Virus record (IMG/VR): IMGVR_UViG_3300024331_000007
Span: 32,001 to 96,000 of that record
Length of the DNA stretch: 64,000 nt
Strand: one strand, 5' to 3'
From: a virus
Taxonomy: Duplodnaviria > Caudoviricetes
The translations under genes were made by a program, and so were the position numbers. The stretch's first letter is position 1; every line of letters starts with the position of its first letter. The notes under the pieces are model-generated. The model was given only the letters and a program-made list of their open reading frames with translations. It ran no database searches and was not told the origin of the DNA. Positions 30,937 through 60,048 of this stretch are shown one piece after another.

Positions 30937-32147
30937 ATAGCAATCCATCCACACGGTCTATAACCATCTTTCAAGGACAGAAGATGAGCCTTAGTCCAAA
31001 TCACACCTTCTTCGTTTTTATCCGTATCATATAAACGTAATGCTTGAAATCGAACTGGTGTATCAATATATTTGGCTAGACGATCTTCTGTGTAATACTT
31101 GAAAGAGTTAATGTTCCAGAACGAAACATGTGTTGGATCTTGGTAGGCACCGCGCCCATCTGTTGAAGGAACTTGTATAAAAGCAAATCCACCGGGGGCT
31201 AACACACGATACAATTCCTTCATTGTGAATAAATTGTCCCTGAGATGTTCAAACACATCGTAGGATCGAATTACTCCAACTGAACTATCATCAAAAGGCC
31301 ACGGCTTATTCAGGTCAGCGATAATATCAGCATCCTTCAAATCAAGCGTTGTGAAGTTTCTTTTAGCGGCCATTCTTCCGCCCAATTCTACTTTCAGCAA
31401 ACCAGAACGATCAGCCCAAGCCTCAGTCAAACGTTCAATGTATTGATCGTAGATTCTGTAGACGTTGTTCTGAATTTCGTCGTTGTTCTTCAGCCACGTA
31501 TTGTTTCCGTGAACGCGATAAACATAGAGTCCACGATTGATGTGATGGAATTTTGTCACTTCATACATACGGCACATCAAATCAAGGTCATCAAGGATGC
31601 GCATGTCCTTATTGTAGCCACCGATGGCATTATAAACACTCGCCCTAAAAGCACGAAGATGGTTGGGTGCGAACCATATTCTACTGATGGATTCAGGGGT
31701 TGGCTCAAAGGAAATGTGCTCATCAAGCACATGTCCCTTATAGTTAACTTCTCTGAATTTCCATCCGTAACGCTCATCGAAGCGTTGAATCTTCTGGAAA
31801 TCGCCAGTGGCATGAATTGTGTTTGAATATACGAATCCTACTTCTGGATCGATGAACGCTTTGAAAACCTCTTCAAGAGCATTTTCAACTAGCAAATCGT
31901 CGTGGTCAAACTCCAGAAGAATTTCTCCCTTTGCCAAAGAACAACATTCGCCCTTTAATGGTCCGACCCAAGGAGGAGAAAATGGAGACTCAAAAACTTT
32001 TACTCGGGGGTCATTAAATGATACTGGAGGACAGCCGTTATTGCGAAGGATGATCCATTCCCAATCAGTGTATGCTTGATCCAGTAACGATTGATAGGCT
32101 TCTTTCAGAAAGACATCAGTGTGGGCGGGTGTAAAAACTGAAATCAT
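30933..32147 (-). CDS. GT2 glycosyltransferase fused to SAM-methyltransferase
   Basis: SVFTPAH, FDHDD, DDLDL; ELGG, DLNKPWPF, FEHL, ELYRVLAPGG, DPTH. Confidence 0.85.
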   Translation of the reverse strand: MISVFTPAHTDVFLKEAYQSLLDQAYTDWEWIILRNNGCPPVSFNDPRVKVFESPFSPPWVGPLKGECCSLAKGEILLEFDHDDLLVENALEEVFKAFIDPEVGFVYSNTIHATGDFQKIQRFDERYGWKFREVNYKGHVLDEHISFEPTPESISRIWFAPNHLRAFRASVYNAIGGYNKDMRILDDLDLMCRMYEVTKFHHINRGLYVYRVHGNNTWLKNNDEIQNNVYRIYDQYIERLTEAWADRSGLLKVELGGRMAAKRNFTTLDLKDADIIADLNKPWPFDDSSVGVIRSYDVFEHLRDNLFTMKELYRVLAPGGFAFIQVPSTDGRGAYQDPTHVSFWNINSFKYYTEDRLAKYIDTPVRFQALRLYDTDKNEEGVIWTKAHLLSLKDGYRPCGWIAI

Positions 32148-49948: not shown

Positions 49949-50926
49949 ATGAGACGATTGTCAACAGAAGAGTTTATTCAAAAAGCAACAGCTATTCATA
50001 AGGATAGGTATGACTATAGTGCTGTTGTTTATACTCAATCAAAGGAAAAAGTAAATATAAAATGTAGCATACATGGAATGTTTCAGCAAACTCCAAATCG
50101 TCATTTGAACGGAGACGGATGTATCAAATGTGGGTTTTCCGCAATGAAAACAGCAAGGCGCATGACGACAGAGAATTTTATCAGAAACGCGAAAAAACGT
50201 CATAAGAATCAATACGATTACAGAGAAACCAAATATGTTAACAGTAGAACTAAAGTTTGGATTACGTGTAAGAAACACGGAAGATTTCAACAATTAGCTT
50301 CTGCTCATTTGTTGGGTATAGGATGTTTTGAATGTGGTAGAAAACGGGCTAACGACTCACTTTTGTTAGATACTTCCCATTTTATCAAAAAAGCGCAGTC
50401 TGTGCATGGAAATAGATTTTCATATAAAAAGTCTAAGTATAAGAACATCACAACAAATATTTGTATAACTTGTAAAATACATGGAGATTTTTTACAAAAA
50501 CCAAACACTCATTATGCTGGGGCTGGCTGTCAAAAATGTCAGGAATCAAGAGGGGAAAGCGCAATTAGACGTGTTTTAGAATCTAAAGGCATTATGTTTG
50601 CTAAAGAGCATCGTATGCGCGGTTGCATTCTTAAACGAGAGTTACCATTTGACTTTGCAATTTTTGAAAATCAAAAACTAAAAGGGCTTGTTGAGTATCA
50701 GGGGAAACAACATTACCTGCTTGGAAGTTTTGGTTCTAAATCGGATTCTATAGAAACACAGAAGAAGAATTTGCAATTGGTAAAGCGCAGAGATAGCGCA
50801 AAAGTTAGATTTTGTCAAAAGCGTAATTTACCGCTACTTACTATACCGTACTGGGAATTAAAAAATGTTACCAGTATTTTGGGTCAATTTATAAGTAACA
50901 TATTGACACAGAAGGAAGACTTATGA
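49949..50926 (+). CDS. Homing endonuclease: DUF723-like repeats plus PD-(D/E)xK domain (paralog of 39573..40514)
   Basis: CxxHG.F.Q...H..G.GC x3; LPFDFA..VEYQGKQH. Confidence 0.8.
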   Translation: MRRLSTEEFIQKATAIHKDRYDYSAVVYTQSKEKVNIKCSIHGMFQQTPNRHLNGDGCIKCGFSAMKTARRMTTENFIRNAKKRHKNQYDYRETKYVNSRTKVWITCKKHGRFQQLASAHLLGIGCFECGRKRANDSLLLDTSHFIKKAQSVHGNRFSYKKSKYKNITTNICITCKIHGDFLQKPNTHYAGAGCQKCQESRGESAIRRVLESKGIMFAKEHRMRGCILKRELPFDFAIFENQKLKGLVEYQGKQHYLLGSFGSKSDSIETQKKNLQLVKRRDSAKVRFCQKRNLPLLTIPYWELKNVTSILGQFISNILTQKEDL

Positions 50927-51438
50927 AAATCAATACGAATCTTGAAGATGAGTTCAATCTGTCACCTATGTCATTGGACGAGTCAGAAGTAAACGAAGAA
51001 GCAGAAGAAACAGCCATTGAGCTACAAAATGAACCGACTACCATTGCTCATTATAAGGAACTTGACAAAATTGAGGCCGCTTTGCCACAAGTATTTGGTT
51101 TGGATGCTTCAGATAAGGAATTTGACGAATTGGCAGAATATGGCATTCAGGCTCATAAGGATTTGATGGAGCTTTCAAACAATATTGAACAGAGATTCGC
51201 CGCAGATGTGGCGTCGGCTGCTGGAAACATGCTTGGACACGCCATCAATGCCAGAACCAACAAGATCAAGAAAAAGCTGGATATGATTACACTCCAGCTA
51301 AAGAAGCAACTGGCCGATCACAAGACCAAAACCCTTGCAGAACCAGAAGAATTAGAGGGCGAGGGACAACTTTTGGATCGAAATGACATCCTCGCTCATC
51401 TTTTGGGGAAACCCGTTCAAAACAATGGAAAATCATAA
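50923..51438 (+). CDS. Putative terminase small subunit
   Basis: Helical pattern and C-terminal LDRNDIL reminiscent of gp16; position in the packaging region. Confidence 0.4.
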   Translation: MKINTNLEDEFNLSPMSLDESEVNEEAEETAIELQNEPTTIAHYKELDKIEAALPQVFGLDASDKEFDELAEYGIQAHKDLMELSNNIEQRFAADVASAAGNMLGHAINARTNKIKKKLDMITLQLKKQLADHKTKTLAEPEELEGEGQLLDRNDILAHLLGKPVQNNGKS

Positions 51439-51457
51439 ATACAGCAGAGGTAATGCG

Positions 51458-52069
51458 ATGAAAAAGTTCAGCGAATTTTTGGCGGAAAGTGTCCGTAATT
51501 ACGAGTATAATGTCAAGTTGGCTTTCAAGCCTGACAATGAAATGATGGGTGCAATCGAAAACGCATTGCAGAAGTACAGCCTTGTGTCGATTACCGCACC
51601 AAAAAGTCTCCCAATCCAGCGCGTTGACAAGGACTTTCCCGGCTTCAAAGCTCCAGAAACCTATGTGTTCACCGTTGAACTTGCATACCCTTCCAGCGCA
51701 AACATGATTCGCCACACCATCGCCTCGGTTGGTTTCCAGTTTGAACAGGTTGCCGTTAGCTCACCTCAGCATGACGCCAGCATGGATAAGGAAGATAATG
51801 ATGTTGCTGCAAATACCAGCGACAAAGCATTACTTGATCGCCCATATGATCCACAGAACAACGAAGAAATCAGCGGTGAGAATTTCGGCGATAATTATAA
51901 TGATCGTCTAGTTAAGAACAGCATCGGCAGCACAGATCAGATGATACCTCGCGAATTTAAGCGCACAAATGGCAAAACTTTGAACGATAAAGAATTTAAA
52001 ATTGGCAAGGAGTCTGCTGTGGGGTCTAAACAGAATAAGATTCCTCCTGTGAAGTCTTTTGCTCGTTAA
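51458..52069 (+). CDS. Late protein with T4 CTS-like N-terminus (MKKFSEFLAE)
   Basis: TAAATA plus GAGG RBS; start matches the MKTYQEFIAE pattern. Confidence 0.7.
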   Translation: MKKFSEFLAESVRNYEYNVKLAFKPDNEMMGAIENALQKYSLVSITAPKSLPIQRVDKDFPGFKAPETYVFTVELAYPSSANMIRHTIASVGFQFEQVAVSSPQHDASMDKEDNDVAANTSDKALLDRPYDPQNNEEISGENFGDNYNDRLVKNSIGSTDQMIPREFKRTNGKTLNDKEFKIGKESAVGSKQNKIPPVKSFAR

Positions 52070-52712
52070 ATTTTTGCAAGCGAATTGCGCGGTTTCTTTT
52101 TGAATTAGGATTATTTTCGCCTATAAAATTAGCACGAAGTCGAGCTTTGTATTCATCCGAATGAGTTTTGCCGAACATTGGATTTTTATGGCCAATTTTA
52201 CTGTCGGATATTTTCTTTTTGGCTGCATCCGTTCGTTTTTGTCCAGTTCTCGATTTGGACATTTTCTTACGAGTTCCTTCAGAAAATTTCATTCCTTTTG
52301 TTGTGGCAATTGGTTTCTTTCCTTTCTTAACATCTGACATCTTTTTCTTAGCCACCGCGCTCATGGTTTTTCCTATAGCCGATTCTCGCATTTTTCTTTT
52401 AGTTTCTTCAGAATGTTTCCATCCACTTATTCCTTGACCGCCATTTGTTCTATTTCTTAGACAGCCAGTTCCTAAATCAAGTCTACCAAAAATTCTAATA
52501 AGGGCTATTTCTAGCGAACAGGCTTCTTTATTTGATAAACCATCAAAAATCTTGAGTATAAATTTTTTGTCTTTTGGTGGTTTAGCTCCACAATTGGTAT
52601 GTGGATGATGTGTTCTATATTTCTTTCCTTTACCAATATAATAAGGTGTTCCTGCCTCTCCGTTTGGTGAAGAGTGCTCTCTTAGGTAAGCATACACATA
52701 ATAAATAGACAT
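52026..52712 (-). CDS. GIY-YIG homing endonuclease with NUMOD3 repeats
   Basis: YYVYAY..PYYIGKG, FGRLDLGTGCLRNRTNGG, KHSEETKRKM. Confidence 0.9.
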   Translation of the reverse strand: MSIYYVYAYLREHSSPNGEAGTPYYIGKGKKYRTHHPHTNCGAKPPKDKKFILKIFDGLSNKEACSLEIALIRIFGRLDLGTGCLRNRTNGGQGISGWKHSEETKRKMRESAIGKTMSAVAKKKMSDVKKGKKPIATTKGMKFSEGTRKKMSKSRTGQKRTDAAKKKISDSKIGHKNPMFGKTHSDEYKARLRANFIGENNPNSKRNRAIRLQKFNEQKTSQEESYSV

Positions 52713-53135: not shown

Positions 53136-56100
53136 ATGATTGGCATGGACATGGGCCGCATACTTACGATTTTCAACAGCATGAAGAATGTTAACATGAG
53201 CGGCACCCCTGCGGCTGAAGAACCCGTCGAAGAAATCGAAACTAAGCCTTGTGCTGAATGCGTGAATTGCAGCGGTACGGGCCATCTCGATTTGGGATGG
53301 GGAGAAACTGTTCCCTGTTTGGAATGTCAAACAACGGGAAAGATTCTGGAATACAGTGATGGAGTTGATTCAGGTCCAATCGGTGACAGTGGAGCGGAAG
53401 ACGAAGGTCCAGCAGGTAAGTATGGCGCTGGAGAAATGTGGCAGAAAGATGAAATGGACTTTCCTCCTGAGAGTTTTTTCAAGACAAAAATTGCTGGCGA
53501 AAAGAAATCCGATCAGGATGTTAATGATCACGACTTAACTGTGGACGATCAACTTATACAGGATCATTTGGAAGAAGGCACCGATAAGTTGGATGAAGAA
53601 CGCGAAATGTGCCGCAGATGCGGAAATCCTACAACTGCACCGGGTATAGGGTTGTGTGACGATTGCTACAAAACTTCATATGAACATTCAATGGATAGAG
53701 TGAATCAAGTAACTCAAAAAAGACGCGCTGGAGATAGAGTTGTTGAGACAGCACCTCCAGATCAGGAAGATTGGGTTAAGAAAAACAAGTCTCGATTCAA
53801 GAAAGAATATGGCGACAAGAAGGGCGAAGAAGTTCTTTACGCTACGGCTTGGAAGAACCACAATAAGAAAAAGACCAACGAAGGTGAAAACACCGTGAAG
53901 AAGACAGTCGATGAATGTAATGGTTGTTCCGCTGGCGCTCCTGCCCAAGATCGTGATGCCGTTTCCGTCAATGCATCTTACAATAGTGACATGGACGAAA
54001 AGAGTGTTACTGTTACTGCTCGTAATGGTAGTGCTGATGAATTGATGCACATTCTCAAGCTGAGTGGCATTATGCCCGGTGAAGAGAAGACTGAGATTGC
54101 TCCTGAGCCACAGCCAGCCGCTGTTACTGGATTGTCGGCAGTAGTTGTTGGTGAAGGCAAAGAAGAAGTAGCAGCATCAATTGAAAACAAAAAGAAATAT
54201 GAACACAAATTTAAGCCGGGTAAGAGTGGCCGTATCTGCGTCCATGCTGGCTCCCATTCTCATTGTGGAAAGGTAGCAGATAATTATTTGCATGTTGGCT
54301 CACCTAAATGGAAAGCGGATAACGATAGACTACAGAGTAAATTGAACGAAGAGTTCCACCCAGACTTGCACGACAGTGACGCCGAAAGAGATTCGATGTT
54401 CTGCGACAGATGTTTTGGTTATCATGACGGTCCGTGCAAGGAAGAAACAAATTTCGAAGGATTGTGCGATCATTGTGGCGATAATGAAGCAATTGACGGC
54501 ACGAAATTCTGCCGTGATTGCCACGAATTAGGATTTGGTGAGGATTGGTATCAGGAACAGCTTGAAAAAGAAATGGCTGAACGCGATCCGTTTGCTATTC
54601 ACGAAGGACACATTTACGAATTGGATACACCTATTTGTTCCAATTGTGGATCGCCAAGAGAAGCAGGTATTCACAGCGGAGCAGATGAAGAAAAGCTCTG
54701 CGCTGATTGCTACAAGTATGCTCACATGGATGAATTGACCAATCCAGCCGACGAAGGTGCATACGATTTTGATAGAGACACAAATTGGGAACCAGATGAT
54801 TTCGAAGAAATGAATCGAAATGAAGCCAATGATTATACAAACGAATCAAAATTGAACGAAACTTCTGGTTATTATGTCACTGGATACACTCTAAAATCCA
54901 GTCAAGATAACAAATTTCGCCAGTGTTTTGTTAAATTAAATTTAGAAAGAGAACACTCTCTTAGCCCAAATTATATTCTTGTATTCGGTAAACAATTTGC
55001 AACTATTTTTGATGATTTAAACGAAGCAAAAAAAGCTGCTGCAAATGCTAAATCAATTTATAAATTACATAGCGTTTCAGTAAAGCCACAAATGGCAGAT
55101 ATTATTGAATTTCCTAAAAAAGTTCAAGAGAAGGTAACTAAAATGAATGAATCACTATCACCAAAAAGAGAAAACACTGGTTTGAACGGTGCTCCTAAGA
55201 CATGGCAGAATGAACCAAACGAACAGATGGCAGGTTGGAAGGCTCTCGTTCAGGATACCGAAGGATTGAGTCAGCCTCATGATATGTTCAATGCCGTGAA
55301 GGGTAGCGACAACATCATGACTGTTGCCTCAAAGAAGAGAGAAACAGAAAAGCCATCGGGTGATTTCGCCGCCAATGCTGTAATTGTTAGTGCAATTGCC
55401 GAAAAATTACAGAAGAAGTTCGATGTGCTGGAAGAATCAGATGATTCAGTTGAACGTATGACATGCTGCAAATGTGGCAAGAATACTTCGCGTTTCAATT
55501 GCAAGTGCGGTCACAAGATATGCTCAAGCTGCAAGGAAGCTCCAGCAAATAAGAAAAAGACTGTTAAGGAAGGTACACTAACAGAAGACCGTTGCATTTC
55601 GTGCGATGCCCGTATACCATCTGGCAGCGACATTGACCAGTGCAAGAAATGCTACAAAAAAGATCACCCAGAAGAAGGCAAGTCTAAAAAAAAGGTAACT
55701 GAAGCTAATTCCAGTAAAGCCGTAAACTGCTGTTCCTGCGGTAAAAACGGAATTGCCAAAAAATCCGAGAAATTTTCCAAATCTCATTGGACTAAGGCTC
55801 CAATGGAATGCAAGTCGTGTGGTCATAAGATTTGTACTCGCTGTAAAACACCTAAAAAGAAGGTAACTGAAGATGAATCTCTTTCGATTCGTTATTCAAA
55901 GAATCTTCCTGAGAAAAATACAGCACCATATACTCTATTGTTTACTGCAACTGATAAAAGCGGAGTAAAGAAAGGACATTTGGGTATTTGGGCTGACTCT
56001 GATCAGGAAGCTATTCAGAAAGGAATTGCAAAGATTGATCAGGAAAATAATTACGTCGGCAAAAAATATCAATTTGCTATTATTGGAATCGAAGACAATT

Positions 56101-57527
56101 TTGGTAGTCCTCGACGTAAACAAATTTATCCCGACAACAAGGTTGAGGAATCAACTGCTTCTAAAGTAGCCAAGCAGAAAGAAGACCATCCAGAAAAGTA
56201 TTGCAAGACAAAGAAGTGCCTCTATCGCACTGATGCTGACTATTGTCCAAAACATAAGCCAACAAAAAAGGTAAATGAATCTGGAAACTTCTCACAATAT
56301 TCAGATGAGTTCTATAATAAGGTTGCTGAACAAGAAAAACCAATGGAAGAGTTTTTGCGCAATGCTGGTTGGGAAAGCAAGGAAATTGTCGCACCTAACC
56401 AGAGAAAGCAATTGATGTGGTTACAACCCGGAAAGCCTTGGAGAGAATATAGTACTTTGAATGCTTATCATACCGCAAAAGGCATGACTGAATCTAAGAA
56501 TACTAAAGAACCAAAAAAGAAAAAGGTATGTTCTGATTGTGGTGGTTGCCCTCCAACTAAGGGTAGCAATTATTGCAAAAAATGCGCAGGTATGAACGAA
56601 TCCAAACTTGGCGATCTTTCTTGGCAGGGGAAGAATCCAAAAAAATTCTGGACCAAAATAACATACAATCTGGATAAGATACTATTCAAATTGTTTTGGG
56701 GTGAAACCTTTCCAAAGGATAGACCTCACTATGATACCAAGACAATTACAAAATATCTGAAGGACTATAACTTATCGGATGAGCAGATCAAGAACATTCG
56801 TCTCTGCGCCATTACAGCAATGAAATCTGCCATTAAGGATGCAGGTATCCCAGACGATAAAGTCTACAAGCTTCAGGATAGTTTTACAATTTACAATTTC
56901 ATCCCATCTTTCAATCGCGATGAAGAAAGACAGATGAGGGACGATATTGATACAGCCGCTCGACACAAATTTGAATTGCTTTTGAAGAAATATGGTCACG
57001 AATTAACGGAGTCTACAATGAAACCAATTGAAGTAACAGAAGAAGTATCCAAGTCGTCAGCAAAGAAGCTACAGGCAGCATTAGATAACCTTGAACAGAA
57101 GGTAAAGAAGTTGGGCGCACCTCCTTCTCCACAGACAAAGATCACGCAATCAATGGAACGCTTCACTGATAAGATTGCAGCTATCAAGGCAGCTTTGGCA
57201 AAGAGAAAAGGCGAAGACGAAGAGGAATCTTCTGAAGACGAAAAGCCAAAAGCCAAGAAGTCTGAAGGCGACGGCGAAAAGTCTGAAAAGAAACCTTTCG
57301 AAAAGAAGGAAAAGTCTGAGAAGTCTGAACCTGATGAAGAAGGCAAAGAAGCTGAGCCAAAGCCAAAGGAACAAAAAGAAACCGCCAGCAACAAGCCAAA
57401 TACAAACGGCGATGACAAGGCACCTGTTGGTAAGGTTAAGGATATTGGCAAAGGAATCTATGAGTCTGAAGTTGAAAAGATGCAGGGATTCCGCAGCATG
57501 CTTGTTGAAGGTTTTGAAAAAGAGTAA
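53136..57527 (+). CDS. 1463-aa modular protein, probable internal head/core polyprotein with ~10 Zn-ribbon modules
   Basis: More than 20 (V/L/M/I)-x-E-(S/G/A/D/E) motifs between small CxxC modules; acidic/basic C-terminus. Confidence 0.7.
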   Translation: MIGMDMGRILTIFNSMKNVNMSGTPAAEEPVEEIETKPCAECVNCSGTGHLDLGWGETVPCLECQTTGKILEYSDGVDSGPIGDSGAEDEGPAGKYGAGEMWQKDEMDFPPESFFKTKIAGEKKSDQDVNDHDLTVDDQLIQDHLEEGTDKLDEEREMCRRCGNPTTAPGIGLCDDCYKTSYEHSMDRVNQVTQKRRAGDRVVETAPPDQEDWVKKNKSRFKKEYGDKKGEEVLYATAWKNHNKKKTNEGENTVKKTVDECNGCSAGAPAQDRDAVSVNASYNSDMDEKSVTVTARNGSADELMHILKLSGIMPGEEKTEIAPEPQPAAVTGLSAVVVGEGKEEVAASIENKKKYEHKFKPGKSGRICVHAGSHSHCGKVADNYLHVGSPKWKADNDRLQSKLNEEFHPDLHDSDAERDSMFCDRCFGYHDGPCKEETNFEGLCDHCGDNEAIDGTKFCRDCHELGFGEDWYQEQLEKEMAERDPFAIHEGHIYELDTPICSNCGSPREAGIHSGADEEKLCADCYKYAHMDELTNPADEGAYDFDRDTNWEPDDFEEMNRNEANDYTNESKLNETSGYYVTGYTLKSSQDNKFRQCFVKLNLEREHSLSPNYILVFGKQFATIFDDLNEAKKAAANAKSIYKLHSVSVKPQMADIIEFPKKVQEKVTKMNESLSPKRENTGLNGAPKTWQNEPNEQMAGWKALVQDTEGLSQPHDMFNAVKGSDNIMTVASKKRETEKPSGDFAANAVIVSAIAEKLQKKFDVLEESDDSVERMTCCKCGKNTSRFNCKCGHKICSSCKEAPANKKKTVKEGTLTEDRCISCDARIPSGSDIDQCKKCYKKDHPEEGKSKKKVTEANSSKAVNCCSCGKNGIAKKSEKFSKSHWTKAPMECKSCGHKICTRCKTPKKKVTEDESLSIRYSKNLPEKNTAPYTLLFTATDKSGVKKGHLGIWADSDQEAIQKGIAKIDQENNYVGKKYQFAIIGIEDNFGSPRRKQIYPDNKVEESTASKVAKQKEDHPEKYCKTKKCLYRTDADYCPKHKPTKKVNESGNFSQYSDEFYNKVAEQEKPMEEFLRNAGWESKEIVAPNQRKQLMWLQPGKPWREYSTLNAYHTAKGMTESKNTKEPKKKKVCSDCGGCPPTKGSNYCKKCAGMNESKLGDLSWQGKNPKKFWTKITYNLDKILFKLFWGETFPKDRPHYDTKTITKYLKDYNLSDEQIKNIRLCAITAMKSAIKDAGIPDDKVYKLQDSFTIYNFIPSFNRDEERQMRDDIDTAARHKFELLLKKYGHELTESTMKPIEVTEEVSKSSAKKLQAALDNLEQKVKKLGAPPSPQTKITQSMERFTDKIAAIKAALAKRKGEDEEESSEDEKPKAKKSEGDGEKSEKKPFEKKEKSEKSEPDEEGKEAEPKPKEQKETASNKPNTNGDDKAPVGKVKDIGKGIYESEVEKMQGFRSMLVEGFEKE

Positions 57528-57539
57528 CGAGGGAACATC

Positions 57540-58205
57540 ATGAAGAGTTCTATTGATCTACTGAAGGAATATCGCGATCTTATCGAAGGGAGGGTATCTG
57601 TAAGCGAGGATGAAACCCCTCAAGAGATATCGCCCCGTGCCGATTTGGACAATTTCATGACCAAATGGGGATTTGTAAAGATCGACGATCCATTACATCA
57701 CAAGTTGCAATCCTATGTAAAGCGCAGCGTCTTTCTGAAGGTAATGATTGATGATGAAGATGATTTTTGGACAATTGAAGATGTAAATTCAGAGGGTGAA
57801 TACCTCGAAGATGGTATTGGTGTCGAATCATTAAAACAAACTGTCATGAAATTGATTCGTGCGGCAAAAGGTCTTCGTGAAAGCACCAACAACATTGTCA
57901 AGGGATCATGGATTCCTCGTCATGATGAAGGACAGTTAACTTGGAAGGACAGGGATGGAATTTATCTCGTTCTACCCGGTAGCAATTCGGCATATGGCAG
58001 CAATGATGGTGGATTCAGTTCAGTGGAAGACGCCGAAGAATTTAACCAAAAAGAACTCGGCGGAAAATGGAAGGTTCAAGTAAATGGAGAACCTCCACAG
58101 CATGGAAAGTTCAATACCTGTTCTGAGTGTGATGGAAAGGGCTGTCCAGAATGTGAGTTCACAGGTAAATACGATGTGGGTGTAAACTCGGAACATTACC
58201 TATAA
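57540..58205 (+). CDS. Probable internal head protein
   Basis: SSIDLLKEYRDLIE start; C-terminal CSEC...CPEC. Confidence 0.7.
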   Translation: MKSSIDLLKEYRDLIEGRVSVSEDETPQEISPRADLDNFMTKWGFVKIDDPLHHKLQSYVKRSVFLKVMIDDEDDFWTIEDVNSEGEYLEDGIGVESLKQTVMKLIRAAKGLRESTNNIVKGSWIPRHDEGQLTWKDRDGIYLVLPGSNSAYGSNDGGFSSVEDAEEFNQKELGGKWKVQVNGEPPQHGKFNTCSECDGKGCPECEFTGKYDVGVNSEHYL

Positions 58206-58215
58206 GGGAGATACA

Positions 58216-58599
58216 ATGCATAAGTCAAGCAGTGAAATTTTAAGAGAATATGCCAACATTATCGCTGAAGGTGATTTGGGCAATCCATATAATAATACCG
58301 CCGAAGATACAGAAGACTTCAACTATGGCGAAGAGGGCGGTCCTATGCGTGATGCTATCAATCAGAATGCCGATGACGAAGAAAATGGCGTTGATCTTCC
58401 AGATGAATCCTTGATGGAACCAGAATCTAAAGACGATTCTGAATTTCTGACATATGATCAAGTTCCAGAAAATGATCCTGTCATTAATCTATCCCGCGAT
58501 TTACAGGTTGATTCCGACAAGATCAGTAGATGGCTGAGCAAAAACAAATATGAATTAACTCCTGTTGGTGGTTTATCTAATAAGGAAGGAAATATCTAA
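58216..58599 (+). CDS. Acidic probable internal head protein
   Basis: SSEILREYANIIAE start. Confidence 0.7.
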   Translation: MHKSSSEILREYANIIAEGDLGNPYNNTAEDTEDFNYGEEGGPMRDAINQNADDEENGVDLPDESLMEPESKDDSEFLTYDQVPENDPVINLSRDLQVDSDKISRWLSKNKYELTPVGGLSNKEGNI

Positions 58600-58600
58600 T

Positions 58601-58909
58601 ATGGATCGTCGTCTTACTGATTTAGAAGGAACTAGCCTACCAAATGGTACTCCATTGAAGACTTGGCCTCGTCCAACTGGCTCTTTTCACGAGTGGCGTT
58701 ATGGAATCCTTGAACTCAGAAAAGGTCAGCCGTGGTTTCAATCCATTGCAGGTGCCGCATGGCCCATTCAATATTGGGATGACTTTGCTTTGGCATCGAA
58801 AGAAGAGTTTGTGATGAAGAAACTGGAACATGATAGAAGGAAATTGGAATCCTCCACGGACTTCTTCAGAAAATATTCAGATATTATCTCTGAAACTGAG
58901 AATAGCTAA
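58601..58909 (+). CDS. Orphan LENA-family domain fused to SSTDFFRKYSDIISE motif
   Basis: LPNGT...LASKEEFVMKKLE matches array members 3, 6, 13, 17. Confidence 0.65.
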   Translation: MDRRLTDLEGTSLPNGTPLKTWPRPTGSFHEWRYGILELRKGQPWFQSIAGAAWPIQYWDDFALASKEEFVMKKLEHDRRKLESSTDFFRKYSDIISETENS

Positions 58910-59307: not shown

Positions 59308-59364
59308 TATCGGTCGCGGATCACTAGTCCCACCGATTCTAATGCATACGGAGCATCAGCTATG
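59301..59364 (+). promoter_or_regulatory. Conserved structured leader of homing endonuclease gene (copy C)
   Basis: TAAATA-ATCGGTCGCGG..CCCACCGAT-CTAATGC..GGAGCATCAG-ATG. Confidence 0.75.
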
Positions 59365-60048
59365 CCTATTTACTGCCAAGAATTTCTTGATCTAATCCAA
59401 TCTATTTCCTTTGATAACAAATATTTAAAATGGTATATAACTCTATGTGCCCAAGCGTCCTTGCGAGGATCAGATCGTTCTGTCATTAATCATAACATTG
59501 GATATGTCGAACAACATCACATTATTCCGAAATCTTTAAAAATTGTTAACGAAAAAGTTGATAAAAATTTAGTATACTTAACACCCAGAGAGCATTTTCT
59601 TTGTCATAGATTTTTAGCTAAGATGTTCAGTAATTCGTTATGGAAGAAGAAAATGAACGCTGCGGTTTTCATGATGTGTAATACTACTTACATGATTTCT
59701 AGTCGGCAATATGAATTTCTCAGATTCCAGCATTTCAAAACAAATATACCATCGATACATACTCGTAAGAAAATGGCAGCTAGTCTGAAAAACCTTATAT
59801 GGATTAAAAGAGAACAAACAAATGAATTTTTGCGAGTTTCATCGGAGAAAGCTCAGGAATTTTACAAACTAGGTTTTATTAAAGGCAGAAAACCTCGAAT
59901 CAATGCTCCAGTACATTCCATAGCAAATAGAAGAAAAATATCAATGTCCCATATACTACGAGTTAAAATTACTTGTGAATATTGTGGTTTGGTGTGTTCA
60001 AAACACATGCATACGAGATGGCATGGGAACAAATGTAAGGCTAAATAA
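59362..60048 (+). CDS. HNH-type homing endonuclease
   Basis: YVEQHHIIPKS..NLVYLTPREHFLCHRFL; C-terminal CEYC..WHG.KC. Confidence 0.82.
   Translation: MPIYCQEFLDLIQSISFDNKYLKWYITLCAQASLRGSDRSVINHNIGYVEQHHIIPKSLKIVNEKVDKNLVYLTPREHFLCHRFLAKMFSNSLWKKKMNAAVFMMCNTTYMISSRQYEFLRFQHFKTNIPSIHTRKKMAASLKNLIWIKREQTNEFLRVSSEKAQEFYKLGFIKGRKPRINAPVHSIANRRKISMSHILRVKITCEYCGLVCSKHMHTRWHGNKCKAK

Follow-up and report, generated by a model that had tools for sequence, protein, structure and literature searches.

The window analysed here, a 64,000-nucleotide stretch of the IMG/VR virus record IMGVR_UViG_3300024331_000007 (positions 32,001 to 96,000 of that record), carries on its plus strand an open reading frame (ORF) for a 1463-aa protein (P0001; window 53136-57527), which we consider as a candidate polyprotein. 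The ORF ends in a TAA stop, an AAGGAA Shine-Dalgarno sequence lies 8 nt upstream, and the whole protein matched no Pfam or PHROGs family above cut-off. Its source is the 359,890-bp record of an uncultured soil phage, whose large terminase subunit (TerL) shares 52% identity with its counterpart in Pseudomonas phage PA5oct and 48-49% with the enzymes of Sinorhizobium phage Phosso and Agrobacterium phage Atu_ph07. Because of these identities, we place the record among jumbo phages of the T4-core group. The protein is a string of small modules with hydrophobic-x-Glu motifs at its junctions, and among its relatives the modules are shuffled; we propose that it may be a precursor cut at these motifs by the phage's own head protease.

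A chain of small modules

Rich in Lys, Glu and Asp, the protein holds 52 Cys (3.55% of residues, against a genome mean of 1.64%), and CxxC occurs 21 times where 1.8 are expected (5000 shuffles, maximum 7). The Cys fall into 11 clusters, about ten of which are of the CxxC...CxxC/H type. An earlier sequence-only reading had counted about ten CxxC modules, and this number fits the clusters but not the chain as a whole, which comprises about 20 modules of 36-140 aa each, roughly half of them non-zinc. The N-terminal half is strongly acidic, and the zinc modules of the C-terminal part are basic, with net charges of +5 to +11. Ten sub-segments searched against Pfam (E up to 1) did not reach cut-off, with no enzyme or peptidase domain detectable, and a feature search of the ESM Atlas returned no usable match.

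The protein was cut into modules A to U at 20 junctions, and each module was then located in the relatives. Positions below are those of the window, all on the plus strand, and an arrow marks a candidate cut. Module A (aa 1-72; 53136-53351) starts with a conserved N-terminal leader, consensus M-D-M-G-R-I-L-x-I-F-N-S-M-K-N-x-N-M-S-G-T-P, followed by a CxxCxxC...CxxC zinc module that ends in ILE↓Y. The leader is kept in P0002, P0006, P0018, P0022-24, P0026, P0029 and seven of eight IMG/VR loci, and is looser in L015. Against the DnaJ CXXCXGXG family of Pfam (PF00684), module A scored 12.1 bits at a cut-off of 32.7, with the CxxCxGxG spacing alone being shared. Module B (aa 73-154; 53352-53597), acidic (net -17) and free of Cys, ends in LDE↓E and corresponds to a homologous block in P0002, P0006, P0021, P0028 and P0091. 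Module C (aa 155-204; 53598-53747) is a four-Cys zinc ribbon ending in VVE↓T. Module D (aa 205-260; 53748-53915), with the signature APPDQEDW...LYATAWK, ends in VDE↓C; it stands at varying positions in P0003, P0007-10, P0018, P0021, P0026, P0028 and P0091, preceded by hydrophobic-x-E in eight of nine cases. Module E (aa 261-340; 53916-54155) is a backbone module (...ILKLSG...AVVVGE↓) found in most relatives. The His/Cys-rich module F (aa 341-405; 54156-54350), for which no homologue was found, ends in LNE↓E. Module G (aa 406-490; 54351-54605) has seven Cys in two zinc sites, a net charge of -18 and the terminal motif IHE↓G, and module H (aa 491-575; 54606-54860) consists of a zinc ribbon and an acidic tail ending in LNE↓T.

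For the central part of the chain, AlphaFold2 (AF2) models cover aa 566-775 and aa 768-1155. Module I (aa 576-672; 54861-55151) consists of a folded alpha/beta domain and, after it, a Lys-rich linker ending in MNE↓S; AF2 predicted local distance difference test (pLDDT) scores are about 90 over aa 573-655 and drop below 50 in the linker (aa 659-676), and the fold matches of the module are free-standing proteins of 69-104 aa. Module J (aa 673-767; 55152-55436; N-x-P-N-E-Q...W, ending in LEE↓S) is the most conserved of the family; 12 alignment columns are invariant across 19 sequences. Modules K, L and M (aa 768-817, 818-856 and 857-912; 55437-55871) are three zinc modules with 18 Cys, and VKE↓G, LTE↓D, VTE↓A and VTE↓D stand at their junctions. 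The beta-beta-alpha-beta module N (aa 913-1005; 55872-56150; pLDDT 62-74) ends in VEE↓S, and no homologue of it was found. Next comes module O (aa 1006-1048; 56151-56279), a Cys3-His zinc module that starts S-T-A-S-K-V-A, is modelled at pLDDT of about 96 and ends in VNE↓S. Module P (aa 1049-1119; 56280-56492; alpha+beta, pLDDT 91-97) has its sole homologue in P0005 and ends in MTE↓S, while the five-Cys zinc ribbon of module Q (aa 1120-1155; 56493-56600), ending in MNE↓S, follows a targeting-like N-terminus in P0032. Searches of the AF2 models in pdb_via_wide, afdb_clusters, pdb and BFVD gave no significant named match and no module function; the best fold match was to a topoisomerase subdomain (Z 6.0 over 49 residues), and matches to unnamed small proteins reached TM ~0.6.

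Module R (aa 1156-1292, ending in LTE↓S), with a homologue in P0003 alone, and the 10-aa spacer S (ending in VTE↓E) occupy 56601-57041. Module T (aa 1303-1443; 57042-57464) combines a conserved helical part with a Lys/Glu-rich low-complexity part and ends in G-K-G-I-Y-E↓S; it lies near the C-terminus of every long relative, with further modules after it in P0003, P0004, P0006 and P0015. The chain closes with tail U (aa 1444-1463; 57465-57524), ...FRSMLVE↓GFEKE, which resembles the targeting-type N-termini of neighbouring genes and also occurs in P0002, P0015 and P0016, internally in P0015.

Module O also occurs outside the chain. About 45 free-standing homologues of 44-106 aa give alignments that begin at aa 1006-1008, and 21 of these align from their own residue 2 (M-S-T-A-S-K-V-A...) to aa 1006, the first residue past the predicted cut VEE↓S. 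Judged by sequence, the module defines an unannotated family of free-standing zinc mini-proteins in metagenomes, with the signature S-T-A-S-K-V-A...H-P-E-x-Y-C...C-L-x-R-T...C-P-x-H (among P0035-P0089). Within the metagenomic protein P0063, module O is the N-terminal domain of a tyrosine recombinase; this fusion, together with the basic C-terminal zinc modules, hints at nucleic-acid binding. Homologues of polyprotein modules also stand alone in the genome that encodes the 1463-aa protein, as separate genes at G000:125106-125648 (-) and G000:212469-213374 (-), where G000 denotes positions of the full record. Their counterparts lie inside the chains of P0003 and P0004 in the first case and of P0040 and P0055 in the second. 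Modules therefore move between separate genes and the chain.

The relatives are chains of 346-1545 aa that differ in module number and share a loose common backbone of leader, E, J and T. A single-sequence pattern search of IMG/VR found no close relative, and a module J profile then found eight loci. Shuffling among homologues, which the sequence-only reading had named as a check, is extensive: modules are permuted, gained, lost and split. Module D stands before E in the 1463-aa protein, after L in P0003 and C-terminally in P0007; the order G-H is reversed to H-G in P0005 and P0006; O is found on either side of L, and beyond T in P0015 and P0040; and Q is placed after T in P0006. Between I and J, P0002 and P0004 contain whole inserted zinc modules that bring flanking sites of their own. 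Two loci, L006 and L007, divide the chain between a pair of adjacent genes, and the first of the pair holds the leader and modules A, B and D. Such permutation, and fission and fusion at junctions, would be expected if the products act separately. The family gene keeps its slot between the tube and TerL genes in 10 further loci, all those that reach far enough; in each it lies 1.5-5 kb ahead of the terminase gene, and in most it starts with the same leader.

Motifs at the module junctions

The recurring motifs listed by the sequence-only reading were all recovered (KKVTE and MNES twice each, KKVNES, KVEES, TVKEG, MTES, LNEE, LTES and IYES), and its suggestion that they be compared with shuffled sequence gave a clear result: [LIVM][NT]E occurs 12 times against 2.4 expected, a count that none of 5000 shuffles of the protein reached. 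The a-priori T4-like pattern [LIVM].E is likewise enriched (36 against 22.8; 10 of 5000 shuffles), and the phiKZ-type pattern [SAG].E is not (25 against 29.9). Across the genome, the ORF ranks first of 603 for [LIVM][NT]E[SGA], with seven occurrences where 0.48 are expected. The punctuation exceeds chance, and about 20-25 candidate cut sites lie along the chain.

To avoid circularity, the motif was re-derived from 33 other family members with the 1463-aa protein excluded. When a-x-E-b patterns belonging to conserved modules are left out of the ranking, the top ones are V.ES (60 vs 9), L.ES (43 vs 10), I.ES (33 vs 7.5) and M.ES (22 vs 3.6), which gives V/L/I/M-x-E-S a total of 158 against about 30 expected. 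The resulting site profile has Lys at P8-P4, Val, Leu, Ile or Met at P3, Asn or Thr at P2, Glu at P1 and Ser, then Ala, then Gly, at P1'.

That these motifs mark module boundaries is well supported by four separate lines of evidence. First, 54% of the ends of ungapped homology blocks in 34 family members are no more than 8 aa away from [LIVM].E, against 34% under the null (null maximum 40%), and the same block ends show no enrichment of the controls [SAG].E (0.237 vs 0.269), hydrophobic-x-D and hydrophobic-x-K. Second, hydrophobic-x-E stands at positions -9 to +4 of 72 of the 79 module starts located in homologues, where 26 are expected and 1000 trials reached at most 39; this holds although the upstream neighbour module varies between cases. 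Third, the AF2 models resolve into units of higher confidence (I at about 90, O at about 96, P at 91-97, N and Q at 62-78) joined by low-confidence linkers, and eight junction sites (575, 672, 812/817, 856, 912, 1005, 1048 and 1119) fall in or beside seven such linkers. Those at aa 801-816, 846-862 and 901-929 contain the K/L/M junctions, and the sole other low-confidence stretch in the models is a loop inside module M. Fourth, the alignments of the free-standing module O homologues set in right at the predicted cut, as described above. The sequence-only reading would have failed on motifs spread without regard to domain boundaries; the motifs instead concentrate there.

Codons at the junctions vary synonymously, with GTT, GTC and GTA for Val, TTG, CTG, TTA and CTA for Leu, and TCA, TCT and TCC for Ser; the constraint therefore acts at the peptide level. 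Internal translation starts were also considered as a source of the Met, Val and Leu at P3 and rejected, as none of the Val residues is encoded by GTG and the AAGG-like words are not followed by a start codon.

Proposed prohead processing and its alternatives

The record encodes a protease of the T4 gp21 type (Peptidase_S77; G000:356927-357574), with a PF03420 match of 85.5 bits over G000:356996-357439, in a gene that adjoins portal, scaffold-like and gp23-type capsid genes. The capsid protein has L-R-E↓A directly ahead of the start of its Pfam Gp23 domain, which we take to be the equivalent of the T4 gp23 propeptide site. Proteases of the gp21 family cut short motifs after Glu and depend on little else, and head-internal proteins pair short cleavable targeting peptides with poorly conserved cargo (PMC9026906, PMC5694885, PMC10052503). 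SPN3US gp245, of the same protease family, prefers Ser at P1' (PMC10052503). Peptides resembling the capsid targeting sequence (CTS) of T4, M-K-T-Y-Q-E-F-I-A-E (PMC8442874), occur in four genes neighbouring the ORF and in one beside the protease gene, and are conserved in L006 and L007; a CTS-like element also sits at the C-terminal tail of the 1463-aa protein itself.

We propose that the ORF encodes a prohead-internal precursor that a gp21-type protease would cut at some 20-25 sites into mini-proteins, a reading to which we give slightly better than even odds (about 0.5). Roughly 20 autonomous mini-domains, about half of them Cys4/Cys3His zinc modules and the rest small alpha/beta or helical units, would be joined by Lys-rich linkers ending in [V/L/I/M]-x-Glu, mostly followed by Ser, a site of the gp21-family type. 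The precursor would co-assemble into the prohead core via its N-terminal leader and/or E, J, T and the targeting-like tail, and the protease would cut after every exposed Glu. Folded pieces would then remain in the head and exit with the DNA, and acidic or unstructured pieces may be lost. If each module has a cut site of its own, its order and host gene would be immaterial, which would explain shuffling, gain, loss and fission. The sequence-only reading had called the protein a protease-punctuated polyprotein, and this is borne out in part: modular architecture, boundary sites, shuffling, a gp21-family protease and CTS-like neighbours all favour it, while cutting in the prohead, retention of the pieces in the head and a DNA-binding or effector activity of theirs are predictions.

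Several observations weigh against this proposal. The N-terminus of the 1463-aa protein is a different conserved leader, unlike the T4 CTS, and the second of the split genes in L006 and L007 has neither leader nor CTS. Module J is modelled at low AF2 confidence (about 47) despite its top conservation; it may serve in binding and fold upon contact with a partner, for example the core, the capsid interior or DNA. Val and Met are common at P3, unlike the classical T4 preference for Leu/Ile, and some of the hydrophobic-x-E sites (aa 630, 1065 and 1072) fall within helices modelled with confidence, so that not all can be usable. The refined motif was defined partly after inspection of the data, and the homologues are related, so their counts overstate independence. 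Neither the whole protein nor modules J and T gave a tblastn match among 50,697 phage records, and no cultured relative was found. The positional counterpart, PA5oct gp281 (PQE65_gp281), is a virion protein by mass spectrometry that lies in the same slot, after the gp283/gp282 homologues and directly upstream of TerL, and is acidic with several V-x-E-[S/T/D/A] sites; but it has only 498 aa, few Cys and a modest motif enrichment (8 vs 3.4), and BLASTP found no homology to it. The PA5oct paper gives no cleavage data.

The sites inside folded helices, and the split second genes without a targeting leader, would also suit an uncleaved beads-on-a-string binding protein, in the virion or not, in which hydrophobic-x-Glu-Ser serves as a structural linker or domain cap; polyvalent phage proteins, moreover, are often delivered as large chains (PMC5512222). 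We regard this as rather unlikely. Unrelated folds that share one four-residue upstream element, as at 72 of 79 module starts, are hard to explain without cleavage; the ORF is a genome-wide outlier, and its motif fits the encoded protease family at P3, P1 and P1'. Unrestricted permutation and fission at junctions are also unexpected if overall architecture mattered.

Cleavage at the same sites could instead serve a sacrificial core or scaffold filler, modelled on T4 gp22 and on the long propeptides of SPN3US and phiKZ head proteins, whose pieces would have no later role and would be degraded to clear the head for DNA. Multiple cut sites that help to clear propeptides are documented in SPN3US and phiKZ (PMC5694885, PMC9026906). 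Module T, helical and with Lys/Glu-rich low complexity, is scaffold-like and weakly matches, in low-complexity sequence, the acidic protein next to the protease, and the strongly acidic N-terminal half and the free variation of chain length among relatives point the same way. Many modules, however, are conserved, folded, predicted zinc-binding units, module O has its free-standing homologues and one recombinase fusion, and other modules occur as separate genes elsewhere in the genome, all of which argues for module functions of their own. A dedicated scaffold gene, furthermore, already lies upstream of the capsid gene. We consider filler an unlikely account of the chain.

Three junctions (aa 856, 912 and 1048) share about 20 nt at 81% identity, as would be expected if the junctions were DNA-level recombination linkers and the peptide motif a by-product; the remaining junctions share no DNA word, and with the synonymous variation of their Val, Leu and Ser codons this becomes highly improbable. 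A tail tape-measure or tail-length ruler, to which the location between tube and terminase genes and a weak CIS_TMP Pfam match (aa 1274-1401) might point, is scarcely credible, since that match is below threshold (14.2 bits vs a cut-off of 27.8) and in low-complexity sequence, relatives of 346-1545 aa and split genes are incompatible with a ruler, and the protein is Cys-rich and globular-modular, not a long helix.

A prohead-cleaved chain of mini-proteins would resemble a known type of mechanism, that of T4 internal protein (IP)/Alt and phiKZ/SPN3US processing; what would be new is the release of many products from one chain. With T4 IPI, IPII, IPIII and Alt, the system shares a gp21-family protease, hydrophobic-x-Glu candidate sites and non-conserved, fast-changing families, and the N-terminus of the neighbouring gene product (M-K-K-F-S-E-F-L-A-E) is close to the T4 CTS. 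Each T4 IP, however, is one protein that is cut a single time, behind a 10-residue leader (PMC8442874), whereas the present chain has about 20 modules, about 20-25 candidate sites, a longer and different leader, and Val/Met at P3. The inner-body and ejection proteins of phiKZ, 201phi2-1 and SPN3US are jumbo-phage head-internal proteins that receive several x-x-Glu cuts from a gp21-related protease (gp175/gp245). In contrast, these proteases use Ala/Ser/Gly at P3, a pattern not enriched in the 1463-aa protein, and their substrates shed long propeptides to leave one mature protein; they are not strings of unrelated mini-domains, and module shuffling has not been described for them.

Polyvalent proteins (Iyer et al. 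2017, PMC5512222) also join many unrelated domains per chain in variable architectures, and are thought to be delivered with the DNA and proteolytically released. They carry enzyme domains and an embedded zincin-like peptidase (MPTase), neither of which is detectable in the 1463-aa chain, whose release would rely on a separate head protease. Retroviral Gag and adenovirus core precursors, which are targeted to assembly and from which, within the immature particle, a viral protease frees small basic or zinc-knuckle pieces that bind nucleic acid, offer a mechanistic analogy alone; viruses, proteases, folds and module number are unrelated, with no evolutionary link. Our literature search for a phage polyprotein cut by a prohead protease yielded studies of T4, phiKZ and SPN3US and the paper on polyvalent proteins, and nothing else.

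Should the predicted cuts be real, the site grammar of the head protease would allow capsid cargo to be read from the sequence of uncultured jumbo phages. Tailed phages would then use true polyproteins with about 20 products; to our knowledge, this strategy is known from RNA viruses and retroviruses, and in phages there are only single-cut internal proteins or self-processing polyvalent proteins. Such cutting would also offer a natural modular design for packing many small proteins into T4-type capsids. More tentatively, the phage might pre-load its capsid with about 20 different mini-proteins, mostly zinc-ribbon, that are made as one precursor, separated by the head protease and injected with the DNA as a pre-synthesised first wave of effectors, the freely swappable modules being plug-and-play cargo that evolves in an arms race with the host. 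Such a system would be a general, undescribed strategy of cargo delivery. The analysis also defines several unannotated mini-domain families, of which module O, with its dozens of free-standing homologues, is one.

Neighbouring genes and the head cluster

The gene upstream of the 1463-aa ORF (51455-52069, +) encodes a homologue of PA5oct gp282, which mass spectrometry identified as a virion protein; the N-terminus M-K-K-F-S-E-F-L-A-E↓S of the encoded protein is near the T4 CTS. The ORF was listed as 51383-52069, and its true start is probably Met25 (window 51455), 24 codons later; the L006 and L007 orthologues and PA5oct gp282 all begin at the Met of M-K-K-F-S-E-F-L-A-E. The gene at 50923 is a homologue of PA5oct gp283. 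Downstream, a 221-aa protein (57540-58205, +) has the N-terminus ...L-L-K-E-Y-R-D-L-I-E↓G and a C-terminal zinc module, which is the last polyprotein module in P0015, P0029, P0038 and P0049. It is followed by a 127-aa protein (58216-58599, +) with the N-terminus ...I-L-R-E-Y-A-N-I-I-A-E↓G, whose L006 and L007 orthologues keep the targeting-like element, and by a 114-aa protein (58565-58909, +) that ends with such an element, F-F-R-K-Y-S-D-I-I-S-E↓TENS. In L006, the last of these elements lies internally, as a link between two modules. The window shows no enrichment of the T4 late-promoter word TATAAATA, and the word does not occur upstream of the 1463-aa ORF.

The head-morphogenesis cluster (G000:352087-359013 and G000:748-3035) spans both ends of the linear record, which is therefore circularly permuted. 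Its order is portal, acidic 299-aa protein, gp21-like protease, endonuclease-like gene, 239-aa protein, scaffold and capsid; the 239-aa protein has a CTS-like N-terminus, and the gp21-like protease itself carries I-S-E↓S close to the N-terminus and L-T-E↓Y close to the C-terminus.

Three homing-endonuclease-like genes interrupt the structural operon, at 49949-50926 (+), 52026-52712 (-) and 59362-60048 (+). One is HNH by PHROG and the minus-strand ORF is GIY-YIG-like, while an H-N-H-like ORF among them overlaps the annotated start of the terminase gene. L006 and L007 lack these genes or carry others at different places.

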